Source: Escherichia coli
Lineage (GTDB): Bacteria > Pseudomonadota > Gammaproteobacteria > Enterobacterales > Enterobacteriaceae
DNA length: 64,000 nt
Direction: 5' to 3' (one strand)
NCBI RefSeq assembly: GCF_003790525.1
Contig: NZ_CP033635.1
This document shows, piece after piece, positions 44,280-64,000 of the stretch (its first letter is position 1; the number at the start of each line of letters is the position of its first letter). A program made the translations under genes and the position numbers. Below the pieces are notes generated by a model, which ran no database searches, was not told where the DNA came from, and saw only the letters and a list, made by a program, of their open reading frames with translations.

Positions 44280-44308
44280 GCCGGAGGCAAGTTTCCTCCG
44301 GCTTTATC
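44280..44308. terminator. hairpin between convergent dcuC and dpiA (gccggagg-caagttt-cctccggc)
   Basis: 8-bp stem followed by T-rich TTTATCA. Confidence 0.55.
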
Positions 44309-44311
44309 ATG

Positions 44312-44992
44312 TCACCCACTGTGGTATATGCGTTGCGGTCTGCCAACTTTGCCGTGAACAATTTCAGCAATAATCAGATGGCGGCTGGCGCAATATTCAA
44401 GATAACGTCTGGCAGTGGTGCGGCTGATAGTCAGTGCCTGCGCCACCGTTTCTGCCGTATGTTGCACACCAGGCTCTTTAAACAGTTTTCGCACTGCGTT
44501 TAGCGTCAAGGGGTCAATGCCGGTCGGCAGTTCGTCTTTGGGTTCACCGCGAGCATAGGCATTAAACATCTCATCAATTTGCTTCTGGCTGGCGCTATCA
44601 ATACTTTCCAGCATATGTTTACGCTGGCGGAAACGGGTTAGCGTTTGCCCCAGCCGTTCATAGGCAATGGGCTTAATGAGATAATCAAATACACCACAAC
44701 GTACGGCTTCAGACACCGTTTCCATATCGCTGGCTGCAGTGGTAAACACCACGTCGCCGGGATAATGCGCCTGCACCAGTTCATGCAGTAAATTAATCCC
44801 TCTACCGTCAGGAAGATAGTTATCGAGCAAGATTAGCCCCGGCTTAAAACGCTCGATCATCATTCGGGCCTGCGCCAGGTTTCCCGCCAGTAATATCTGA
44901 CTGAATCCGGGAATGTGACGAATATATTCCGCATGCATCTCTGCCAGCGGCGTTTCGTCCTCAACGATCAATAGGGTTAATGGAGCTGTCAT
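44312..44992 (-). CDS. dpiA: two-component response regulator DpiA (CitB), 226 aa
   Basis: receiver domain with phospho-acceptor context LILLDNYLPDG; C-terminal HTH. Confidence 0.93.
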   Translation of the reverse strand: MTAPLTLLIVEDETPLAEMHAEYIRHIPGFSQILLAGNLAQARMMIERFKPGLILLDNYLPDGRGINLLHELVQAHYPGDVVFTTAASDMETVSEAVRCGVFDYLIKPIAYERLGQTLTRFRQRKHMLESIDSASQKQIDEMFNAYARGEPKDELPTGIDPLTLNAVRKLFKEPGVQHTAETVAQALTISRTTARRYLEYCASRHLIIAEIVHGKVGRPQRIYHSG

Positions 44993-46619
44993 TAGGTTTC
45001 ACTTTCGGAATATAGATTGAAAATAAGGTACCGCAGGGATCATTATCTTCGAGAGTGATAACACCACCGCAGCGCGTTACGTAGCTGGCAATCAAGTACA
45101 ACCCAATGCCATGTTCGCCGGGCTCGTCAGCACGCGTACTGACACCCTGCTCAAATATTTTGTCTCGTAGAGACTCTGGAACGCCGCAGCCCTGATCGGC
45201 GACTTCAATCACCACATCATCGCCTTCATCGCTGAGGAATAATTCAACGATCTTGTTTCCTTCATCGCTACGTAGGCTGGCTTCGAAGGCGTTATCAAGT
45301 AAATTGCCAACAATGGCTGCAAACTCGGTGCTGTCCAGTCCTGGCGGCAGTTGCGAAAGCTGACTTCCGGGGACGATGACCATTTTTAGCCCCAGTTCGC
45401 GGGCGCGCTGCACTTTACCAAAAAGCAGCCCCGCCACCTGGCGATCGGCAAACGCCTCGCGCAGGCTATCAATAAGCTGTTGCTGGGCCTGAGACTCCCC
45501 CTGCACCATCGCCAGCACGCGATCATACTCTTTCATCTGCAACAGACCATTGAGCGTCGACATCCAATTGAGATGCTCGTGTCGCAATGTGCGCAGGCTC
45601 TCGACGTATTGTTTAATTTGCGTCAGTTGCGCATTGAGGGTGGATATTTCGTCTTTACTACGAAAGCTGATAATGGCCCCCAGCAAATCATCACCAGAAC
45701 GAATAGCTTCCCGGTTGGCAATAACGCTCAGACCGTTAAAGTTCGCCACCACATCCTGACGTTTTTCATCAATCTGTTCGGTAAAGAAATCGGCGGGCCT
45801 GACCACTTCAGCAATGGGTTTACCCAACCATTGCCGTCCGGGGGAACTCAGACCCAGCATCTTTCTTGCGTTACGATTGATGGCGGTAATGTAACCATGC
45901 GGATCCACCGCAATGAGCCCTTCATAAACCGAACTAAACAGCGCCTCTTGCTGACGGACCACGCGTGCGATTTGCTTTGGCTCCATGCCCATCATCTGCC
46001 GACGGATATGCGCGGCCAGGAACCACGATAGCAACATCAGAATCCCTAACAGCACGACAAACACGCCAGCCATCGGTAATAAAAACTCAGCCCGCCAGCT
46101 ATCGATTTTACTCACCAGGTAGCCAATCGACACCACGCCGATGACTTTTCCATCGTCATCAAAGATTGGCGTTTTGGCACGCATCGCCATGCCAATTGAC
46201 CCTTTCCCGGTGATGAAGTAGCTCTCCCCTTTCTCCAGCGCGCCCGGTTTGGTGAACTGCATAGGATAACCAATTTTCTCCGGATTAGGATGGTAAAGAC
46301 GAATCGAGTGCCGATCGCCAATCACCACATAATCGAAATCAGTATCTCTTTGTAATTTGTCAGCGATGGTCGCCAGCCTCTTGTAGTCACGCGTTTTCAC
46401 TGCGCTGATGATACTGTCATTAGAAGCAATAATTTTTGCCTGATTCATTGCCATGTCGCGCACATGAAGCGTTAAATAGTCCTCAAAACTGGCTGTAAAA
46501 TATTGCGCCAGGGCTGCAATGACAAATATTGAGAACACCAGAATCAGCAAAAAGATACGCAGCGGAAATGCCAGTCTTTGGAAAAATGCAAACTGTTTAT
46601 TCTCGTTAAGCTGCAACAT
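44961..46619 (-). CDS. dpiB: sensor histidine kinase DpiB (CitA family), 552 aa
   Basis: two TM segments flanking a periplasmic domain, HATPase motifs; start at MLQLNENKQFAFF; 3' end overlaps dpiA by 32 nt. Confidence 0.92.
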   Translation of the reverse strand: MLQLNENKQFAFFQRLAFPLRIFLLILVFSIFVIAALAQYFTASFEDYLTLHVRDMAMNQAKIIASNDSIISAVKTRDYKRLATIADKLQRDTDFDYVVIGDRHSIRLYHPNPEKIGYPMQFTKPGALEKGESYFITGKGSIGMAMRAKTPIFDDDGKVIGVVSIGYLVSKIDSWRAEFLLPMAGVFVVLLGILMLLSWFLAAHIRRQMMGMEPKQIARVVRQQEALFSSVYEGLIAVDPHGYITAINRNARKMLGLSSPGRQWLGKPIAEVVRPADFFTEQIDEKRQDVVANFNGLSVIANREAIRSGDDLLGAIISFRSKDEISTLNAQLTQIKQYVESLRTLRHEHLNWMSTLNGLLQMKEYDRVLAMVQGESQAQQQLIDSLREAFADRQVAGLLFGKVQRARELGLKMVIVPGSQLSQLPPGLDSTEFAAIVGNLLDNAFEASLRSDEGNKIVELFLSDEGDDVVIEVADQGCGVPESLRDKIFEQGVSTRADEPGEHGIGLYLIASYVTRCGGVITLEDNDPCGTLFSIYIPKVKPNDSSINPIDR

Positions 46620-46997
46620 TGTTTTCCTTGCGGGTTGTCCCGAGCCTCTTTGACGGATGTAATTAAAATGTTGAATCAAAATACATAGATATTAAATATG
46701 ATCGTGGCAAATTTTATTCATTAAATCAATTAAATCACTTAAACCTGCGGGTCATTTCGTAATTACATTAGTTAAAAAACTTAAAACCATTAAATAAATA
46801 AAAAACCACTAACTCTATGTGAAATAAATCAAAATTTCACGCCGAAATACTCCTTAGGATGTATAGCGAAAGGAGAAAAAGATATATCTCGATCACCCCC
46901 TTTCTCCCAAGTGAAAATAAAAGGTTATCAGTTTGCAACATCGAACAACATTCGTTGCAAATCGATAACAACATGCACCTTCAGGATACTATTTATT
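46620..46997. promoter_or_regulatory. divergent AT-rich control region of dpiBA and citCDEFXG-citT
   Basis: 378-bp AT-rich non-coding spacer between divergent operons; DpiA and CRP sites are expected from literature but were not motif-verified. Confidence 0.5.
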
Positions 46998-48056
46998 ATG
47001 TTCGGCAATGATATTTTCACCCGTGTAAAACGTTCAGAAAATAAAAAAATGGCGGAAATCGCCCAATTCCTGCATGAAAATGATTTGAGCGTTGACACCA
47101 CAGTCGAAGTATTTATTACCGTAACCCGCGATGAAAAGCTTATCGCGTGCGGTGGAATTGCCGGAAATATTATTAAATGCGTTGCTATCAGTGAATCCGT
47201 TCGCGGTGAAGGACTGACGCTGACATTAGCCACTGAATTGATAAACCTCGCCTATGAGCGGCACAGCACGCATCTGTTTATTTATACCAAAACCGAATAC
47301 GAGGCGCTGTTCCGCCAGTGCGGTTTTTCCACGCTGACCAGTGTACCCGGCGTGATGGTGCTGATGGAAAACAGCGCCACGCGACTGAAACGCTATGCCG
47401 AATCGCTGAAAAAATTTCGTCATCCAGGGAACAAGATTGGCTGCATTGTGATGAACGCCAATCCCTTTACGAATGGTCACCGTTATCTGATTCAACAGGC
47501 TGCAGCACAGTGCGACTGGTTGCATCTGTTTTTAGTTAAAGAAGATTCTTCACGCTTTCCCTATGAAGACCGGCTGGATCTGGTGTTAAAAGGCACCGCC
47601 GATATTCCACGCCTGACTGTGCATCGCGGCTCCGAATACATCATCTCCCGCGCTACGTTCCCTTGCTACTTCATTAAAGAACAGAGCGTCATTAACCATT
47701 GTTACACCGAAATTGATCTGAAGATTTTCCGTCAGTACCTCGCTCCCGCGCTGGGTGTAACTCACCGCTTTGTCGGTACTGAACCCTTTTGTCGTGTTAC
47801 CGCCCAGTACAACCAGGATATGCGCTACTGGCTGGAAACGCCGACTATCTCCGCACCGCCCATCGAACTGGTTGAAATTGAGCGGCTGCGTTACCAGGAG
47901 ATGCCGATATCCGCTTCCCGGGTACGTCAACTGCTGGCGAAAAACGATCTCACGGCTATCGCGCCGCTGGTCCCTGCAGTCACGCTGCATTATTTGCAGA
48001 ACCTGCTTGAGCACTCCCGCCAGGACGCGGCAGCTCGTCAAAAGACCCCCGCATGA
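46998..48056 (+). CDS. citC: [citrate (pro-3S)-lyase] ligase, 352 aa
   Basis: start MFGNDIFTRV at ATG 46998; ORF-track start 46911 is an upstream extension. Confidence 0.93.
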   Translation: MFGNDIFTRVKRSENKKMAEIAQFLHENDLSVDTTVEVFITVTRDEKLIACGGIAGNIIKCVAISESVRGEGLTLTLATELINLAYERHSTHLFIYTKTEYEALFRQCGFSTLTSVPGVMVLMENSATRLKRYAESLKKFRHPGNKIGCIVMNANPFTNGHRYLIQQAAAQCDWLHLFLVKEDSSRFPYEDRLDLVLKGTADIPRLTVHRGSEYIISRATFPCYFIKEQSVINHCYTEIDLKIFRQYLAPALGVTHRFVGTEPFCRVTAQYNQDMRYWLETPTISAPPIELVEIERLRYQEMPISASRVRQLLAKNDLTAIAPLVPAVTLHYLQNLLEHSRQDAAARQKTPA

Positions 48057-50818: not shown

Positions 50819-52223
<1,405 letters not shown>

Positions 52224-55356: not shown

Positions 55357-55438
55357 CTCAAATATCAACCAGATTTATCATTTTGCTCTTAAGCGCAGCA
55401 TTCTAATCTGAACTGGTTATTCATCTGCGGAACCTCAT

Positions 55439-55528
55439 ATGAGCGAAGCTCTCGGTATCACTGCATTTTATATATTCATAGCAGCAATTATTGTTGCTGC
55501 AGTGCTATACCTTGAACAACGCTGGTAG
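55439..55528 (+). CDS. candidate small hydrophobic protein, 29 aa (MSEALGITAFYIFIAAIIVAAVLYLEQRW)
   Basis: ATG...TAG ORF below the ORF-track cutoff; single predicted TM helix; weak Shine-Dalgarno (gcggaa); lies between rnk terminator and uspG promoter. Confidence 0.3.
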   Translation: MSEALGITAFYIFIAAIIVAAVLYLEQRW

Positions 55529-55651
55529 CGCCTGGTTTTATTTATTTTCCAGCTCAATAGCAAATTCAGATCAAATCAGCCTCGCAAATCATAGATTCAT
55601 AACCAATAATGTGCTGTTATGTATACATGCAAAAACAAGGAGAGAATGCTT

Positions 55652-57878: not shown

Positions 57879-57894
57879 TACGCGATTGCGGAAC

Positions 57895-58458
57895 TTAGAT
57901 TTTACCAACCAGGTCCAGAGACGGAGCCAGAGTTGCTTCACCTTCTTTCCATTTAGCCGGGCAAACTTCACCTGGGTGAGAAGCTACGTACTGTGCTGCT
58001 TTGATTTTACGCAGCAGGTCAGACGCGTCACGGCCAATGCCTTCAGCGGTAACTTCGATTGCCTGGATGATACCCTGCGGGTCAACAACGAAGGTCGCAC
58101 GGTCAGCCAGACCTTCATCTTCACGCATGTTGTCGAAGTTACGGGTCAGGGCGCCAGTCGGGTCGCCGATCATCGCATATTTGATTTTAGCGATGGTTTC
58201 AGAGCTGCTGTGCCATGCTTTGTGGGTGAAGTGAGTATCGGTAGATACTGCGTATACGTCTACGCCCAGTTTCTGCAGTTCTTCGTAATGGTCAGCAACG
58301 TCACCCAGTTCGGTCGGGCATACGAAAGTAAAGTCAGCCGGGTAGAAGAAGAAGACGCTCCAGCGGCCTTCGGTATCTTTTTCGGTGATTTCGATGAATT
58401 CGCCGTTTTTGAATGCCTGGTTTTTAAAAGGTTTAATTTTGGTGTTAATCAAGGACAT
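57895..58458 (-). CDS. ahpC: alkyl hydroperoxide reductase subunit C (2-Cys peroxiredoxin), 187 aa
   Basis: peroxidatic Cys in FTFVCPTEL and resolving Cys in EVCPAKW. Confidence 0.96.
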
Positions 58459-58829
58459 CTATACTTCCTCCGTGTTTTCGATGAGATGTAAGGTAACCAA
58501 TTTTTGCCGATTCGGCTAATGCGTTTCCATTATCAAATCGATAAGTTTTACCTTACAACCTTCGTAAGACAACTTTGTGAACTTTGCACCGCCAGCGGCG
58601 ATAAAAAGTAAAATGGCCCCCTTTCCAGGTGACCGTGTAATCTGAACTACCCTTTGGTATCTTCAGCGCCTGCCTGCAGGCTGAGGTGTTGCCCTTACAA
58701 ATGCAACAACGACGTGGATTACAACACCCTCATAAACAAAGGGCAATCACCTGATCTAAGCTCTTACCTATGACAGTGATAGGTTATGCCTTTTACCCGA
58801 CTTTTGCACTGACTGAAAAGGACAAATTA
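58459..58829. promoter_or_regulatory. divergent ahpC / dsbG control region (OxyR-regulated per literature)
   Basis: 371-bp non-coding spacer between divergent genes; OxyR site expected from established knowledge, not motif-confirmed. Confidence 0.5.
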
Positions 58830-59576
58830 ATGTTAAAAAAGATACTTTTACTGGCTCTGCTTCCTGCAATCGCCTTCGCAGAGGAACTTCCTGCCCCAGT
58901 AAAAGCGATTGAAAAACAGGGCATTACAATCATCAAAACGTTCGATGCTCCCGGAGGAATGAAAGGTTATCTCGGCAAGTATCAGGATATGGGCGTCACC
59001 ATCTACCTGACTCCAGATGGTAAGCACGCTATCTCCGGTTACATGTACAACGAGAAAGGTGAAAACCTGAGTAACACACTTATCGAAAAAGAAATTTACG
59101 CACCCGCCGGACGCGAAATGTGGCAACGGATGGAACAATCCCACTGGCTCCTCGACGGTAAAAAAGACGCGCCGGTCATTGTCTACGTCTTCGCCGATCC
59201 GTTCTGCCCATATTGTAAACAGTTCTGGCAGCAGGCTCGCCCGTGGGTAGATTCTGGCAAAGTGCAATTAAGAACATTGTTGGTTGGCGTTATCAAGCCA
59301 GAAAGCCCGGCGACAGCAGCGGCAATTCTTGCCTCCAAAGATCCCGCAAAAACCTGGCAAGAATATGAAGCCTCTGGTGGCAAGCTTAAGCTAAACGTGC
59401 CTGCAAACGTAAGTACAGAGCAAATGAAAGTGTTAAGCGATAACGAGAAACTGATGGACGATCTGGGGGCAAATGTCACGCCAGCTATCTATTACATGAG
59501 TAAGGAAAATACACTGCAACAGGCCGTGGGGTTGCCCGATCAGAAAACGCTTAATATCATTATGGGGAATAAATAA
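58830..59576 (+). CDS. dsbG: periplasmic thiol:disulfide oxidoreductase DsbG, 248 aa
   Basis: ATG 58830 with AAGGA 7 nt upstream; signal peptide [17 protein letters not shown]; CPYC active site; in-frame upstream extension to 58770 exists. Confidence 0.92.
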
Positions 59577-59581
59577 AAGAT

Positions 59582-59640
59582 AATTCATGGATGGTTGAAA
59601 TATATTCCTGCTTTTCAACCATCCTAAAAAAGCATGAATT
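59582..59640. repeat. nested inverted repeat downstream of dsbG (aattcatg / ggatggttgaaa ... tttcaaccatcc / catgaatt)
   Basis: 12-bp inner stem and 8-bp outer stem read directly; followed by A-run rather than T-run. Confidence 0.45.
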
Positions 59641-59780
59641 GCTCGTAACCCACCTGACAGCTATGCTATTTTAGAAAATCTTAATCCAAAGTTAAGCAGA
59701 AAAACATAACACATATAAATACAACAACATTATTGATCAAGTGAATGATTTATGGAAGAGACAATACAACGGAGTATGTT

Positions 59781-60683
59781 ATGGCTAATCTTTATGATCT
59801 AAAAAAATTTGACCTCAATTTACTGGTTATATTTGAATGTATTTATCAACATCTCAGCATTAGTAAAGCGGCAGAATCATTATATATAACGCCCTCTGCT
59901 GTTAGTCAGTCGTTACAACGTTTACGTGCGCAATTTAATGACCCGTTATTCATTCGCTCAGGGAAAGGTATCGCGCCGACTACAACAGGGTTAAACCTGC
60001 ATCACCATCTTGAGAAAAATCTCAGAGGCCTTGAACAAACGATCAATATCGTTAATAAGTCTGAACTAAAGAAAAATTTTATTATCTACGGTCCTCAGCT
60101 TATTTCTTGTACTAATAACAACATGCTAATCCGCTGTCTTAGACAAGATACTTCAATCGATATAGAATGCCATGACATACTGCTTTCAGCTGAAAATGCC
60201 GAAGAACTGTTGGTTCAACGCAAAACTGACCTGGCAATTACACTACAACCAGTAATTAGCCGCTCTGTCATCTGCATGCCGTTACATACTATTCGCAATT
60301 CTCTTATATGTAGCAACAGACATCCTCGTATTACCGATACCAGTAACTATGAACAAATTATCGCCGAAGAATTCACCCTGTTGATATCTAAATCAGCAGG
60401 GATTGACGAAATTCAAATGGACATAGATGAACGTTTTATGAACCGTAAAGTTTCATTTCGCAGTTCTTCTTTGATGACTATAATTAATAGTATTTCTGTT
60501 ACTGACTTATTAGGCATTGTGCCCACCGAACTGTACAATTTACATCGTGACTTTTTGAAGTTAAAAGAAATAAAACTGGAACAACCTCTTCCTGCGGTTA
60601 AACTTTATATTTCCTATAACAAGGCTTCGTTGAACAACCTTGTCTTCTCCCGATTCATAGATCGTTTAAATGATAGCTTCTGA
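59781..60683 (+). CDS. ybdO: LysR-family transcriptional regulator, 300 aa
   Basis: N-terminal HTH (LNLLVIFECIYQHLSISKAAESLYITPSAVSQSLQRLR); strongly AT-rich coding sequence. Confidence 0.88.
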   Translation: MANLYDLKKFDLNLLVIFECIYQHLSISKAAESLYITPSAVSQSLQRLRAQFNDPLFIRSGKGIAPTTTGLNLHHHLEKNLRGLEQTINIVNKSELKKNFIIYGPQLISCTNNNMLIRCLRQDTSIDIECHDILLSAENAEELLVQRKTDLAITLQPVISRSVICMPLHTIRNSLICSNRHPRITDTSNYEQIIAEEFTLLISKSAGIDEIQMDIDERFMNRKVSFRSSSLMTIINSISVTDLLGIVPTELYNLHRDFLKLKEIKLEQPLPAVKLYISYNKASLNNLVFSRFIDRLNDSF

Positions 60684-60829
60684 TTCATTACCACTGACAA
60701 ATAATATATTACGCATCAATTAATTCATTATGTGAATATAAAATAATGTGCTCTATCTTGCTTCGTTTATCCTATAATTAGCGGATTCATCTCACGAGTC
60801 ACCCCGTAACGTTCAGAGAGCGTTTTTAG

Positions 60830-62050
60830 ATGTCTATTTATAAAATCCCGCTTCCACTGAATATTCTGGAAGCTGCAAAAGAACGTATTACCTGGACACT
60901 TAATACCCTACCCCGTATCTGTGTTTCTTTTTCGGGTGGTAAAGATTCCGGATTAATGCTGCATCTGACCGCCGAAATTGCCCGACAAATGGGCAAAAAA
61001 ATCTGCGTTTTGTTTATCGACTGGGAAGCGCAGTTCTCATGCACTATTAACTATGTTCAGTCATTACGTGAGTTTTACGCCGATGTCATCGAAGAGTTTT
61101 ACTGGGTTGCGCTCCCGCTTACGACGCAAAATTCCCTTTCTCAATACCAACCCGAATGGCAGTGCTGGGAACCTGATGTCGAATGGGTACGTCAGCCCCC
61201 GCAAGATGCGATAACCGATCCTGACTTTTTCTCCTTTTACCAGCCTGGCATGACCTTCGAACAATTTGTGCGTGAGTTTGCCGAATGGTTTTCGCAAAAA
61301 CGTCCGGCGGCGATGATGATCGGCATCCGTGCGGATGAGTCCTACAACCGTTTTGTCGCCATCGCCAGTTTAAATAAACAACGTTTTGCCGATGATAAGC
61401 CCTGGACTACTGCCGCACCAGGCGGTCATAGCTGGTACATTTACCCCATCTACGACTGGAAAGTCGCTGATATCTGGACCTGGTATGCTAACCATCAACA
61501 GCTCTGTAACCCACTGTATAATATAATGTATCAGGCAGGCGTTCCTCTGCGTCATATGCGAATTTGCGAACCTTTTGGCCCGGAGCAACGGCAAGGATTA
61601 TGGCTCTATCACGTTATCGAACCGGATCGCTGGGCTGCTATGTGCGCACGAGTCAGCGGGGTAAAAAGTGGCGGCATTTACGCCGGACATGATAATCATT
61701 TTTATGGTCATCGGAAAATCCTCAAGCCAGAACATTTAGACTGGCAAGAATATGCATTATTGCTGCTCAATAGCATGCCGGAAAAAACAGCTGAGCATTA
61801 CCGCAATAAAATCGCCATTTATTTGCACTGGTATCAGAAAAAAGGCATCGAAGTTCCACAAACCCAGCAAGGGGACATTGGCGCGAAAGATATCCCCTCC
61901 TGGCGGCGAATATGCAAAGTTTTACTCAATAACGATTACTGGTGCCGGGCATTATCATTTAGTCCTACGAAAGCGAAGAACTATCAGCGTTATAACGAAC
62001 GGATAAAAGGAAAACGTCAGGAATGGGGGATACTATGCAACAACGATTAA
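60830..62050 (+). CDS. ybdN: PAPS-reductase-like / PP-loop ATP-pyrophosphatase family protein, 406 aa
   Basis: PP-loop SFSGGKDS near N-terminus; matches recalled YbdN. Confidence 0.9.
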   Translation: MSIYKIPLPLNILEAAKERITWTLNTLPRICVSFSGGKDSGLMLHLTAEIARQMGKKICVLFIDWEAQFSCTINYVQSLREFYADVIEEFYWVALPLTTQNSLSQYQPEWQCWEPDVEWVRQPPQDAITDPDFFSFYQPGMTFEQFVREFAEWFSQKRPAAMMIGIRADESYNRFVAIASLNKQRFADDKPWTTAAPGGHSWYIYPIYDWKVADIWTWYANHQQLCNPLYNIMYQAGVPLRHMRICEPFGPEQRQGLWLYHVIEPDRWAAMCARVSGVKSGGIYAGHDNHFYGHRKILKPEHLDWQEYALLLLNSMPEKTAEHYRNKIAIYLHWYQKKGIEVPQTQQGDIGAKDIPSWRRICKVLLNNDYWCRALSFSPTKAKNYQRYNERIKGKRQEWGILCNND

Positions 62051-62652
62051 CGCAGGATTTAACCCAATTTCTCGCCAGCTTGCCGGAAGATGATCGCATC
62101 AAAGCGATTAATGAAATCCGCATGGCGATCCATCAGGTTAGCCCCTTTCGTGAAGAGCCAGTGGATTGCGTTCTGTGGGTTAAAAACAGCCAACTTATGC
62201 CTAATGATTACAACCCAAACAACGTGGCACCACCCGAAAAAAAACTGCTGAAAAAATCCATTGAAATAGATGGTTTTACCCAACCCATTGTGGTCACGCA
62301 TACGGATAAAAATGCCCTGGAAATCGTGGATGGTTTTCACCGCCATGAAATTGGTAAAGGCTCATCATCGTTAAAATTACGCTTAAAAGGTTATTTGCCG
62401 GTGACCTGTCTGGAAGGTACGCGTAATCAACGCATCGCCGCAACTATTCGTCATAATCGCGCTCGTGGACGTCACCAAATCACTGCCATGTCAGAAATCG
62501 TCCGAGAACTCAGCCAGTTGGGATGGGACGATAATAAAATTGGCAAAGAGCTGGGAATGGACAGCGACGAAGTGTTGCGCCTGAAGCAAATTAACGGCCT
62601 GCAAGAGTTGTTTGCCGACCGTCAATTTTCCCGCGCCTGGACGGTTAAATAA
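62023..62652 (+). CDS. ybdM: ParB-like nuclease (ParB/Srx) domain protein, 209 aa
   Basis: DGFHRHE motif (DGxHR class); 28-nt overlap with ybdN. Confidence 0.9.
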   Translation: MGDTMQQRLTQDLTQFLASLPEDDRIKAINEIRMAIHQVSPFREEPVDCVLWVKNSQLMPNDYNPNNVAPPEKKLLKKSIEIDGFTQPIVVTHTDKNALEIVDGFHRHEIGKGSSSLKLRLKGYLPVTCLEGTRNQRIAATIRHNRARGRHQITAMSEIVRELSQLGWDDNKIGKELGMDSDEVLRLKQINGLQELFADRQFSRAWTVK

Positions 62653-63813
62653 CTAAAGCTGGCGCAGGCGTTCTGCTGCTGCCAGCAACGTCGATTCCTT
62701 CTTGGCAAAACAGAGACGAATCAGTTTATGTGGGAAGGGATCGGCGCAAAACACCGACAGCGGAATCGCCGCTACGCCGTGCTCCCGCGTCAGCCACTGG
62801 CAAAACTCAACATCATCCAGCGTAGATACGGCGCTGTAATCCACCAGCAAAAAGTATGTACCTTCGCACGGTAAAATCTCCAGCCGACTTTCATTTAAGG
62901 CATTCACCAGAATATCGCGCTTCTGGCGATAAAAGTCCGGTAACGCAAGATAATGCTCAGGTTCTGCACGTAGCATATCGGCAAGCGCCAACTGTGCCGG
63001 GGTATTCACCGAAAAGGTCAGATACTGATGCACTTTGCGGATCTCGGCGCTGATGGGCGCAGGTGCAACGCAATACCCCACTTTCCAGCCGGTCATATGA
63101 TAGGTCTTGCCAAACGATGACACCGCCACCGCTCGCTCACACAATTGCGGATGCGCCAGCACGCTGGCATGGCCCTGTTGTGAAAAATTGATGTGCTCGT
63201 AGACTTCATCGCTAATGACAAAAATCTCGTGCCCGGCAATCGCCTGCCACAGAGCGGAGAAATCAGCCTACTGCCAGACAGTTGCACTGGGGTTATGCGG
63301 GGTGTTGAGGATCACCAGTCGGGTGCGCTCGCTTAACAATGCGGCAAATTCCTGCCAGTCCACGCGAAAATGCGGTGGTTGCAGTGCAATACGTTTCACT
63401 ATTCCCCCCGAAAGCGCGATGGCGGGCGCGTAACTGTCATAGCTGGGATCAAAGCAAATCACTTCATCGCCATTGCGAACCAATGCAGTAATCGCTGCGT
63501 ATAGCGCTTCCGTCGCCCCTGCTGTTACGGTGATATCGCTGTCGGCATCTGGTTGATAGCCATACAGCCGTTCCGTTTTCTGAGCAATCGCCTCGCGTAA
63601 TGCCTGCACGCCGGTCATGGGTGCGTATTGGTTTGCCCCCTGGGCAACGTGGTACGCCAGCCGTTCCTGCAAATAGCGCGGACCATCAAAATCAGGAAAG
63701 CCTTGCGACAGGTTAATCGCCTGGTGTTGCTGCGCCAGTGCACTCATCTGGGTGAAAATAGTGGTGCCAAGTTGTGGAAGTTTGCTTTGTGGAATCAGAG
63801 GGTTATTTGTCAT
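62653..63813 (-). pseudogene. ybdL: methionine aminotransferase (PLP fold type I) interrupted by an in-frame TAG after codon 181
   Basis: N-terminal ORF 63268-63813 ends ...SATVWQ at a TAG (plus-strand CTA at 63268-63270); reading continues in the same frame ADFSALWQAIAGHEIF... into the C-terminal ORF 62653-63162 that carries the PLP-lysine motif SFGKTY. Confidence 0.85.
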
Positions 63814-63921
63814 TTTTATTGTGCCTGATGAAGTTGCGTGTTGAAGGCACTATAACACGATGCTAGTATTTGGCAATCAAGACGTTTAGATGTCTAAATA
63901 AAACAATAAGGACAACACAAC

Positions 63922-64000
63922 ATGCCTCACAATCCTATCCGCGTGGTCGTCGGCCCGGCTAACTACTTTTCACATCCCGGAAGTTTCAATCACCTGCACG
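63922..64000 (+). CDS. ybdH: iron-containing alcohol/hydroxycarboxylate dehydrogenase (3'-truncated by window edge)
   Basis: ATG 63922 with AAGGA upstream; N-terminus MPHNPIRVVVGPANYFSHPGSF; only 26 codons in window. Confidence 0.6.
   Translation, partial: MPHNPIRVVVGPANYFSHPGSFNHLH

Follow-up and report, generated by a model that had tools for sequence, protein, structure and literature searches.

In Escherichia coli K-12, the two-component pairs dcuS–dcuR, kdpD–kdpE, baeS–baeR, phoP–phoQ, narX–narL, and cusR–cusS have gene spacings of −4, −4, −4, −1, −8, and −11, respectively, and for the COG pair CitA@CitB the median spacing is −3.4 (quartiles −7.4 and −0.4, n=423). More than 80% of overlapping gene pairs share <30 bp, and overlaps of 10–60 nt are approximately four-fold rarer than the short classes. 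Reporter studies reviewed in 2025 (PMC12548453) placed the best translational coupling at spacings of −4 to +3; larger overlaps cut coupling faster than equivalent spacers, and in one reviewed reporter study (Tian and Salis) no coupling was left at −25. Huber et al. 2023 (PMC10666635) reported that long overlaps produced by stop loss are typically uncoupled, and that phase-1 overlaps (−8, −11, ... −32) were retained several-fold more often than phase-2 overlaps.

The dpiBA locus analyzed here resembles the K-12 pairs in consisting of a kinase and a regulator gene in one operon with a co-directional overlap, DcuSR being its closest paralogue. Unlike those pairs, its genes share 32 nt, a spacing outside the −8 to +6 range given in the literature for termination-reinitiation and beyond the interquartile range of CitA@CitB. 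The dpiBA junction is an outlier within its family; among gene overlaps at large it is uncommon without being remarkable. The initial annotation had described the overlap as longer than the usual 1–4 nt; the coordinates were confirmed, RefSeq and PGAP give the same ones, and the length exceeds that of most such pairs. Two other co-directional overlaps of similar length and standard annotation lie in the same window (the whole 64,000-nt stretch of E. coli contig NZ_CP033635.1), although they involve different genes: citX–citG (26 nt, phase 1) and ybdN–ybdM (28 nt, phase 2). Coordinates of all features are collected in Table 1.

Table 1 Features of the dpiB–dpiA junction and its surroundings (window positions).
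Feature	Coordinates	Strand	Description
dpiB (citA) CDS	44961..46619	minus	sensor histidine kinase, 552 aa; ORF, RefSeq annotation
dpiA (citB) CDS	44312..44992	minus	response regulator, 226 aa; ORF
dpiB–dpiA overlap, 32 nt including stop codon	44961..44992	minus	dpiA codons 1–11 / dpiB residues 543–552 + stop
dpiA ATG start codon	44990..44992	minus	first start downstream of the in-frame TGA
dpiB TGA stop	44961..44963	minus	composed from dpiA Val10 (GTT) + Glu11 (GAG)
TGA in dpiA frame	44999..45001	minus	9 nt 5′ of dpiA ATG
DpiB C-terminal tail, residues 542–552	44964..44996	minus	past the HATPase_c end at residue 539
Invariant CCGAAAGTGAA, dpiB codons P538–K541	44998..45008	minus	6–16 nt 5′ of dpiA ATG
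GC-rich terminator-like hairpin	44280..44302	plus	between convergent dpiA and dcuC; consensus scan only
citC	46998..48056		
citX (50819..51370) / citG (51345..52223) overlap, 26 nt	51345..51370	plus	neighboring cit operon
ybdN (60830..62050) / ybdM (62023..62652) overlap, 28 nt	62023..62050	plus	

The pair is the DpiB/DpiA (CitA/CitB) citrate two-component system of E. coli, as identified by equivalog models, domain architecture and genomic position. DpiB matches the NCBIfam equivalog NF011627 with 1227 bits (cut-off 656) over residues 1–552 of 552, and DpiA matches NF007467 with 520 bits (cut-off 264) over residues 1–226 of 226. The Pfam domains sCache_3_2, PAS, SPOB_a, and HATPase_c (429–539) were found in DpiB, and Response_reg (8–117) and HTH_64 (162–226) in DpiA. 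Their neighbors are dcuC and the divergently transcribed citCDEFXGT operon. Within citC of E. coli O157:H7, an antisense overlapping gene, nog1, has been described (PMC4683798). Elsewhere in the window, K-12 641885..643495 (ybdR and yldA, ~1.6 kb) has no counterpart, with only 276 bp (55358..55633) between the flanking alignments, so this strain seems to lack ybdR. The ybdL–dsbG side (57892..64000) is only ~93% identical to K-12 vs ~98% elsewhere.

At the junction, the dpiB 3′ end reads ATT CCG AAA GTG AAA CCT AAT GAC AGC TCC ATT AAC CCT ATT GAT CGT TGA, and the dpiA 5′ end, in the +1 frame relative to dpiB, reads ATG ACA GCT CCA TTA ACC CTA TTG ATC GTT GAG GAC GAA. The shared nucleotides accordingly encode MTAPLTLLIVE in the dpiA frame and NDSSINPIDR followed by the stop in the dpiB frame. 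The layout is identical in K-12 RefSeq (b0619, 652235..653893; b0620, 653862..654542), and the PGAP annotation of other strains agrees, including that of an O157:H7 variant with 97.5% identity at the junction. Of 5426 complete E. coli genomes, 5416 contain the 120-nt junction (5101 of them at identity of at least 99%), and 5420 match a 2.6-kb query around it. Strain CM2 (NZ_CP158308.1 2679840..2683781) matches the query at 100% identity apart from an IS4-family transposase that interrupts dpiB. Huber et al. 2023 (PMC10666635) give the pair as "NGHB#596 -32" in their Supplementary Table S2 (E. coli). The 32-nt overlap is therefore genuine and previously catalogued, both in RefSeq and in a published E. 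coli gene-spacing table. A DpiB–DpiA fusion by frameshifting was considered and finds no support: the dpiA frame opens only 6 nt before its ATG, and no slippery run occurs there in E. coli.

The reality of the overlap depends on where DpiA begins. Many very long annotated overlaps turn out to be mispredictions, and dpiA has no signal in start-site data sets; DpiA might then begin downstream, at codon 8 (TTG) or codon 19 (ATG), or a frameshift error might misplace the dpiB stop. We give this reading next to no probability. No start upstream of the annotated ATG is possible, because an in-frame TGA lies 9 nt before it, and within the first 30 dpiA codons the only downstream alternatives are the two just named. 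Initiation at codon 19 would delete strand β1 and the E11–D12 acidic pair, and Met19 is a conserved internal residue; with initiation at codon 8, only "MIVEDE" would be left, and many orthologs have CTG or TTA instead of TTG at this codon. The Pfam receiver domain opens at DpiA residue 8, which corresponds to profile position 2, and the closest solved receiver (PDB 5lwk) aligns to DpiA from residue 6. In all 33 orthologous loci analyzed, the ATG keeps a constant position relative to the receiver domain. A frameshift error is countered by the recurrence of the same junction sequence in more than 5000 complete genomes and by the intact dpiB reading frame in the 24 species that have the 32-nt overlap. 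The annotated ATG is a sound start as judged from domain limits and ortholog conservation, with (M)TAPLTLLIVEDETPLAEMHAEYIR as the predicted DpiA N-terminus. Initiation at a downstream ATG, which the initial annotation had named as the finding that would remove the overlap, finds no place in these data. The ortholog comparison it had proposed gave a fixed regulator ATG in the 33 loci and a kinase stop that shifts.

Published start-site data sets add little for dpiA. The INRI-seq table (PMC9825163) gives an in vivo Ribo-RET value of 0 for each of the two genes, neither of which was expressed in the conditions used. In the cell-free INRI-seq experiment of the same study, dpiA scored 0 in each of five replicates, with a template of only 22 CPM vs 548 for dpiB, for which peaks of 8.7–15.3 were recorded at the annotated start, the ATG at 46619. 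Because of the 22-CPM template, and because ~38% of annotated starts in the part of the table analyzed have no INRI-seq peak, the missing dpiA peak says little. The TRAINSPOTTER N-terminomics data set has no entry for DpiA. At the other end of the kinase gene, the dpiB open frame reaches 20 codons further upstream than the annotated start, to a TTG at 46679 (46620..46679, minus).

We then compared overlap lengths, computed from the conserved motif, in 33 loci from GTDB species representatives. The overlap is 32 nt in 24 loci from five genera (Escherichia, Citrobacter, Salmonella diarizonae, Intestinirhabdus, and Buttiauxella), 16 nt in one Buttiauxella MAG, 14 nt in Moellerella, 8 nt in four Providencia loci, and 4 nt (ATGA) in Salmonella arizonae and one Enterobacter sp., while Providencia rettgeri RB151 has a 1-nt gap. 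The features expected of an overlap that arose by stop loss are present. The length is 2 modulo 3; shorter overlaps in the same frame exist (those of 8 and 14 nt in Providencia and Moellerella, respectively); and the extension lies outside the conserved kinase domain and is poorly conserved. Models of DcuS/MalK, WalK, PhoR, VanS, and many other kinases end at DpiB residues 538–542. Within the 32-nt group, mean pairwise identity is 0.86 for dpiA codons 2–11 (5 variants), compared with 0.59 for the DpiB tail (16 variants in 24 species, e.g., NDSSINPIDR, NDGTINATDR, and NDATYYDSDC). In Providencia, DpiB ends 1–4 residues beyond the conserved PKVK. The dpiBA overlap is in these respects like the phase-1 overlaps of Huber et al. 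2023 (PMC10666635): it is 2 modulo 3, and its origin fits the route given there, in which the upstream gene loses its stop and reads on to whatever stop chance supplies next.

The codons next to the dpiA start indicate how the proximal stop could have been lost. In Providencia, regulator codons 2–3 (ATT/GCT/GTT AAG) supply the TAA at −8; Enterobacteriaceae have ACN GAA/GCT there and no TAA. With the proximal stop lost, the next dpiB-frame stop along dpiA falls at frame-codon index 9, which is within the chance range, so the length of the overlap needs no special explanation. The series of ortholog overlaps from −8 to −32 also contains reversions. In two lineages, insertion of a single A shifts the tail frame to end at ATGA, which reduces the overlap from 32 nt to the canonical 4 nt and shrinks the DpiB tail to KKQ or KEQ. 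This differs from the account of Huber et al. 2023 (PMC10666635), in which phase-1 overlaps are not easily shortened: here two dpiBA lineages reached ATGA at −4 by a 1-nt insertion. The extra A lies between GTG and the dpiA ATG in Salmonella arizonae and Enterobacter sp. BIGb0383 (loci L015 and L043, 2981..3004 in each), where the A-run lengths are A9 vs A8 and A6 vs A5; an assembly error at the homopolymer is conceivable. The ortholog series, with its reversion to −4 by single-A insertions, is a small addition of this analysis.

Does the tail, or the overlap itself, serve a purpose? The tail could contact DpiA or tune the kinase, or ribosome occlusion of the dpiA start could set the regulator:kinase ratio. 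Retention of the 32-nt state in 24 species-level loci from five genera would fit such selection, as would the invariant Val10 GTT, which keeps the stop in place, and the recurrence of N-D at the start and D-R/C at the end of the tail. However, those recurring residues are dictated by conserved dpiA codons, and retention of the stop is explained by avoidance of a longer DpiB: the next dpiB-frame stop lies 39 codons beyond the current TGA, and loss of the TGA would lengthen DpiB by 39 codons. The variability of the tail, its trimming by one A in two lineages, and the short Providencia ends also speak against selection on the overlap or the tail, which we regard as very improbable. The DpiB tail instead appears to have little sequence-specific function and to evolve almost freely.

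We next asked where synonymous constraint is visible. In the 24 species with the 32-nt overlap, 2 of 126 amino acid-invariant degenerate dpiA codons use a single codon, and one of them is Val10. It is GTT in 24/24 of these species, its wobble base supplying the T of the dpiB TGA, whereas other conserved dpiA Val columns have major-codon frequencies of 0.38–0.67, and Val10 is GTG, GTC, or GTA in orthologs whose kinase stops earlier. The other single-codon dpiA column is Glu13 (window 44954..44956, minus), just beyond the dpiB stop; it is GAA in 24/24 species with the 32-nt overlap and in 32/33 overall. Among 191 amino acid-invariant degenerate dpiB columns in the 33 orthologs, only K539 (AAA) and V540 (GTG) are single-codon, and they are adjacent. 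P538 is CCG in 97%, and the mean for the triplet P538–V540 is equalled by ~5e-6 of random triplets.

These codons lie in the invariant CCGAAAGTGAA. Its GUGA is the best anti-Shine-Dalgarno match in 33/33 orthologs (−3.9 kcal/mol), 5–9 nt from the AUG. On this comparison, CCGAAAGTGAA is probably the ribosome-binding region of dpiA embedded in dpiB, with GUGA as a weak Shine-Dalgarno-like element. Among the 48 genes in the 50 kb of K-12 around the locus, which have a median of −6.0, the match ranks 41st. Since this element is weak and lies 8–9 nt from the AUG outside Escherichia, the invariance of CCGAAAGTGAA could also serve another purpose. The claim in the initial annotation that the overlap constrains both sequences thus stands in a narrow form, limited to the Val10 wobble base in dpiA and to CCGAAAGTGAA in dpiB, and fails for the tail, which is not conserved. 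The two sites of synonymous constraint are likewise a small addition of this analysis.

Other elements that could bring ribosomes or RNA polymerase to dpiA were sought near the junction. Inside dpiB, an ORF of 14 codons (MIPAVPYFQSIFRK; 45043..44999, minus) shares the dpiA frame and stops at a TGA 6 nt before the dpiA ATG; it was considered as a leader for reinitiation. Citrobacter orthologs lack its start codon, and the ORF is probably due to chance. An internal dpiA promoter in the dpiB 3′ end was also rejected, as no promoter-like site was found there on the minus strand and the overall number of sites is what shuffled sequences give.

Based on these observations, we propose a plausible history and mode of expression for the junction, which we consider likely: a genuine, correctly annotated overlap of the phase-1 type that arose by stop loss, with DpiA made from the annotated ATG, constraint at the Val10 wobble base and CCGAAAGTGAA, and dpiA initiation that is mainly independent. 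First, an ancestral-type stop, as in the Morganellaceae orthologs, would have lain 8 nt into dpiA as a TAA formed from regulator codons 2–3. In Enterobacteriaceae, a change of these codons from Ile/Val-Lys to Thr-Glu/Ala would have made the TAA vanish. The dpiB frame, now without a stop near the dpiA start, would have continued 10 codons past the catalytic domain, and it is this lack of a nearby stop that would account for the 32-nt overlap. The first in-frame stop reached would be the TGA formed by the conserved Val10-Glu11 (GTT GAG), which gives 32 nt. Selection may then act on the Val10 wobble base, preserving the stop and avoiding the 39-codon extension, and on the invariant CCGAAAGTGAA, which holds the sole Shine-Dalgarno-like element for dpiA. 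We infer that dpiA is translated mainly by initiation within the dpiBA mRNA, at a site that is weak, unstructured, and A/U-rich, that the position of the DpiB stop matters little to this, and that efficient termination-reinitiation is not the main route. Initiation regardless of the DpiB stop fits the retention of the same upstream motif at spacings of +1 to −32.

The A+T content from −20 to +20 is 60% for dpiA and 51% for dpiB. The 130-nt junction folds no better than shuffled sequences (MFE z=−0.26), which gives no sign of an inhibitory structure, and the 15-species consensus over the dpiA start reaches only −2.35 kcal/mol, which gives none of a conserved structure there. A local weak A-U/G-U helix, UUAUUUUC/GAAAGUGA, is paired in 87.5% of cells vs ~55% in slid controls; its 3′ arm is invariant, leaving no covariation. 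The UUAUUUUC/GAAAGUGA helix could sequester the dpiA site and so make dpiA depend on dpiB translation.

The initial annotation had read the overlap as implying tight translational coupling. In this alternative, ribosomes would back up ~30 nt from the TGA and reinitiate, or dpiB translation would open the dpiA start, and DpiA output would be locked to DpiB output. The weak Shine-Dalgarno match of dpiA (rank 41/48, as above) is in line with such dependence, as are the absence of an INRI-seq peak from the isolated −30..+120 dpiA fragment and the possible weak helix over GAAAGUGA, and published work has proposed that ribosomes scan in both directions after termination. On the other hand, the missing peak is uninformative for the reasons given above (22-CPM template; ~38% of annotated starts peakless in the part of the table analyzed), and the structure is neither significant nor covarying. 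Coupling efficiency is steeply lower with longer overlaps and was gone at −25 in the study of Tian and Salis as reviewed in PMC12548453, the long stop-loss overlaps surveyed by Huber et al. (PMC10666635) being typically uncoupled. Moreover, the upstream motif is the same in orthologs with the kinase stop at −1, 4, 8, 14, or 32. Tight coupling hence does not follow from the overlap, because coupling falls with overlap length and the folding analysis of the junction turned up no significant conserved structure that would block dpiA, and we regard it as unlikely at this locus.

A related idea is that the 32-nt overlap and CCGAAAGTGAA together form a deliberate expression device, working by occlusion or unmasking of the weak dpiA start or by backward reinitiation over ~30 nt. 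We think this improbable. If true, the regulator:kinase ratio set by the device would differ from that of the usual ATGA junction, and single-A indels in the upstream A-run, as in Salmonella arizonae and an Enterobacter, would switch between the two modes.

Under the preferred reading, an overlap left by stop loss with dpiA initiation mainly independent, the long form may still be of some benefit, the 32-nt state being stable over several genera. For strain engineering, deleting or tagging the dpiB 3′ end takes away the dpiA start region, and altering dpiA codons 1–11 changes the DpiB tail or its stop. The junction has little importance beyond confirming the annotation; dpiBA illustrates cleanly how losing a proximal stop creates a long overlap, and where selection then acts.
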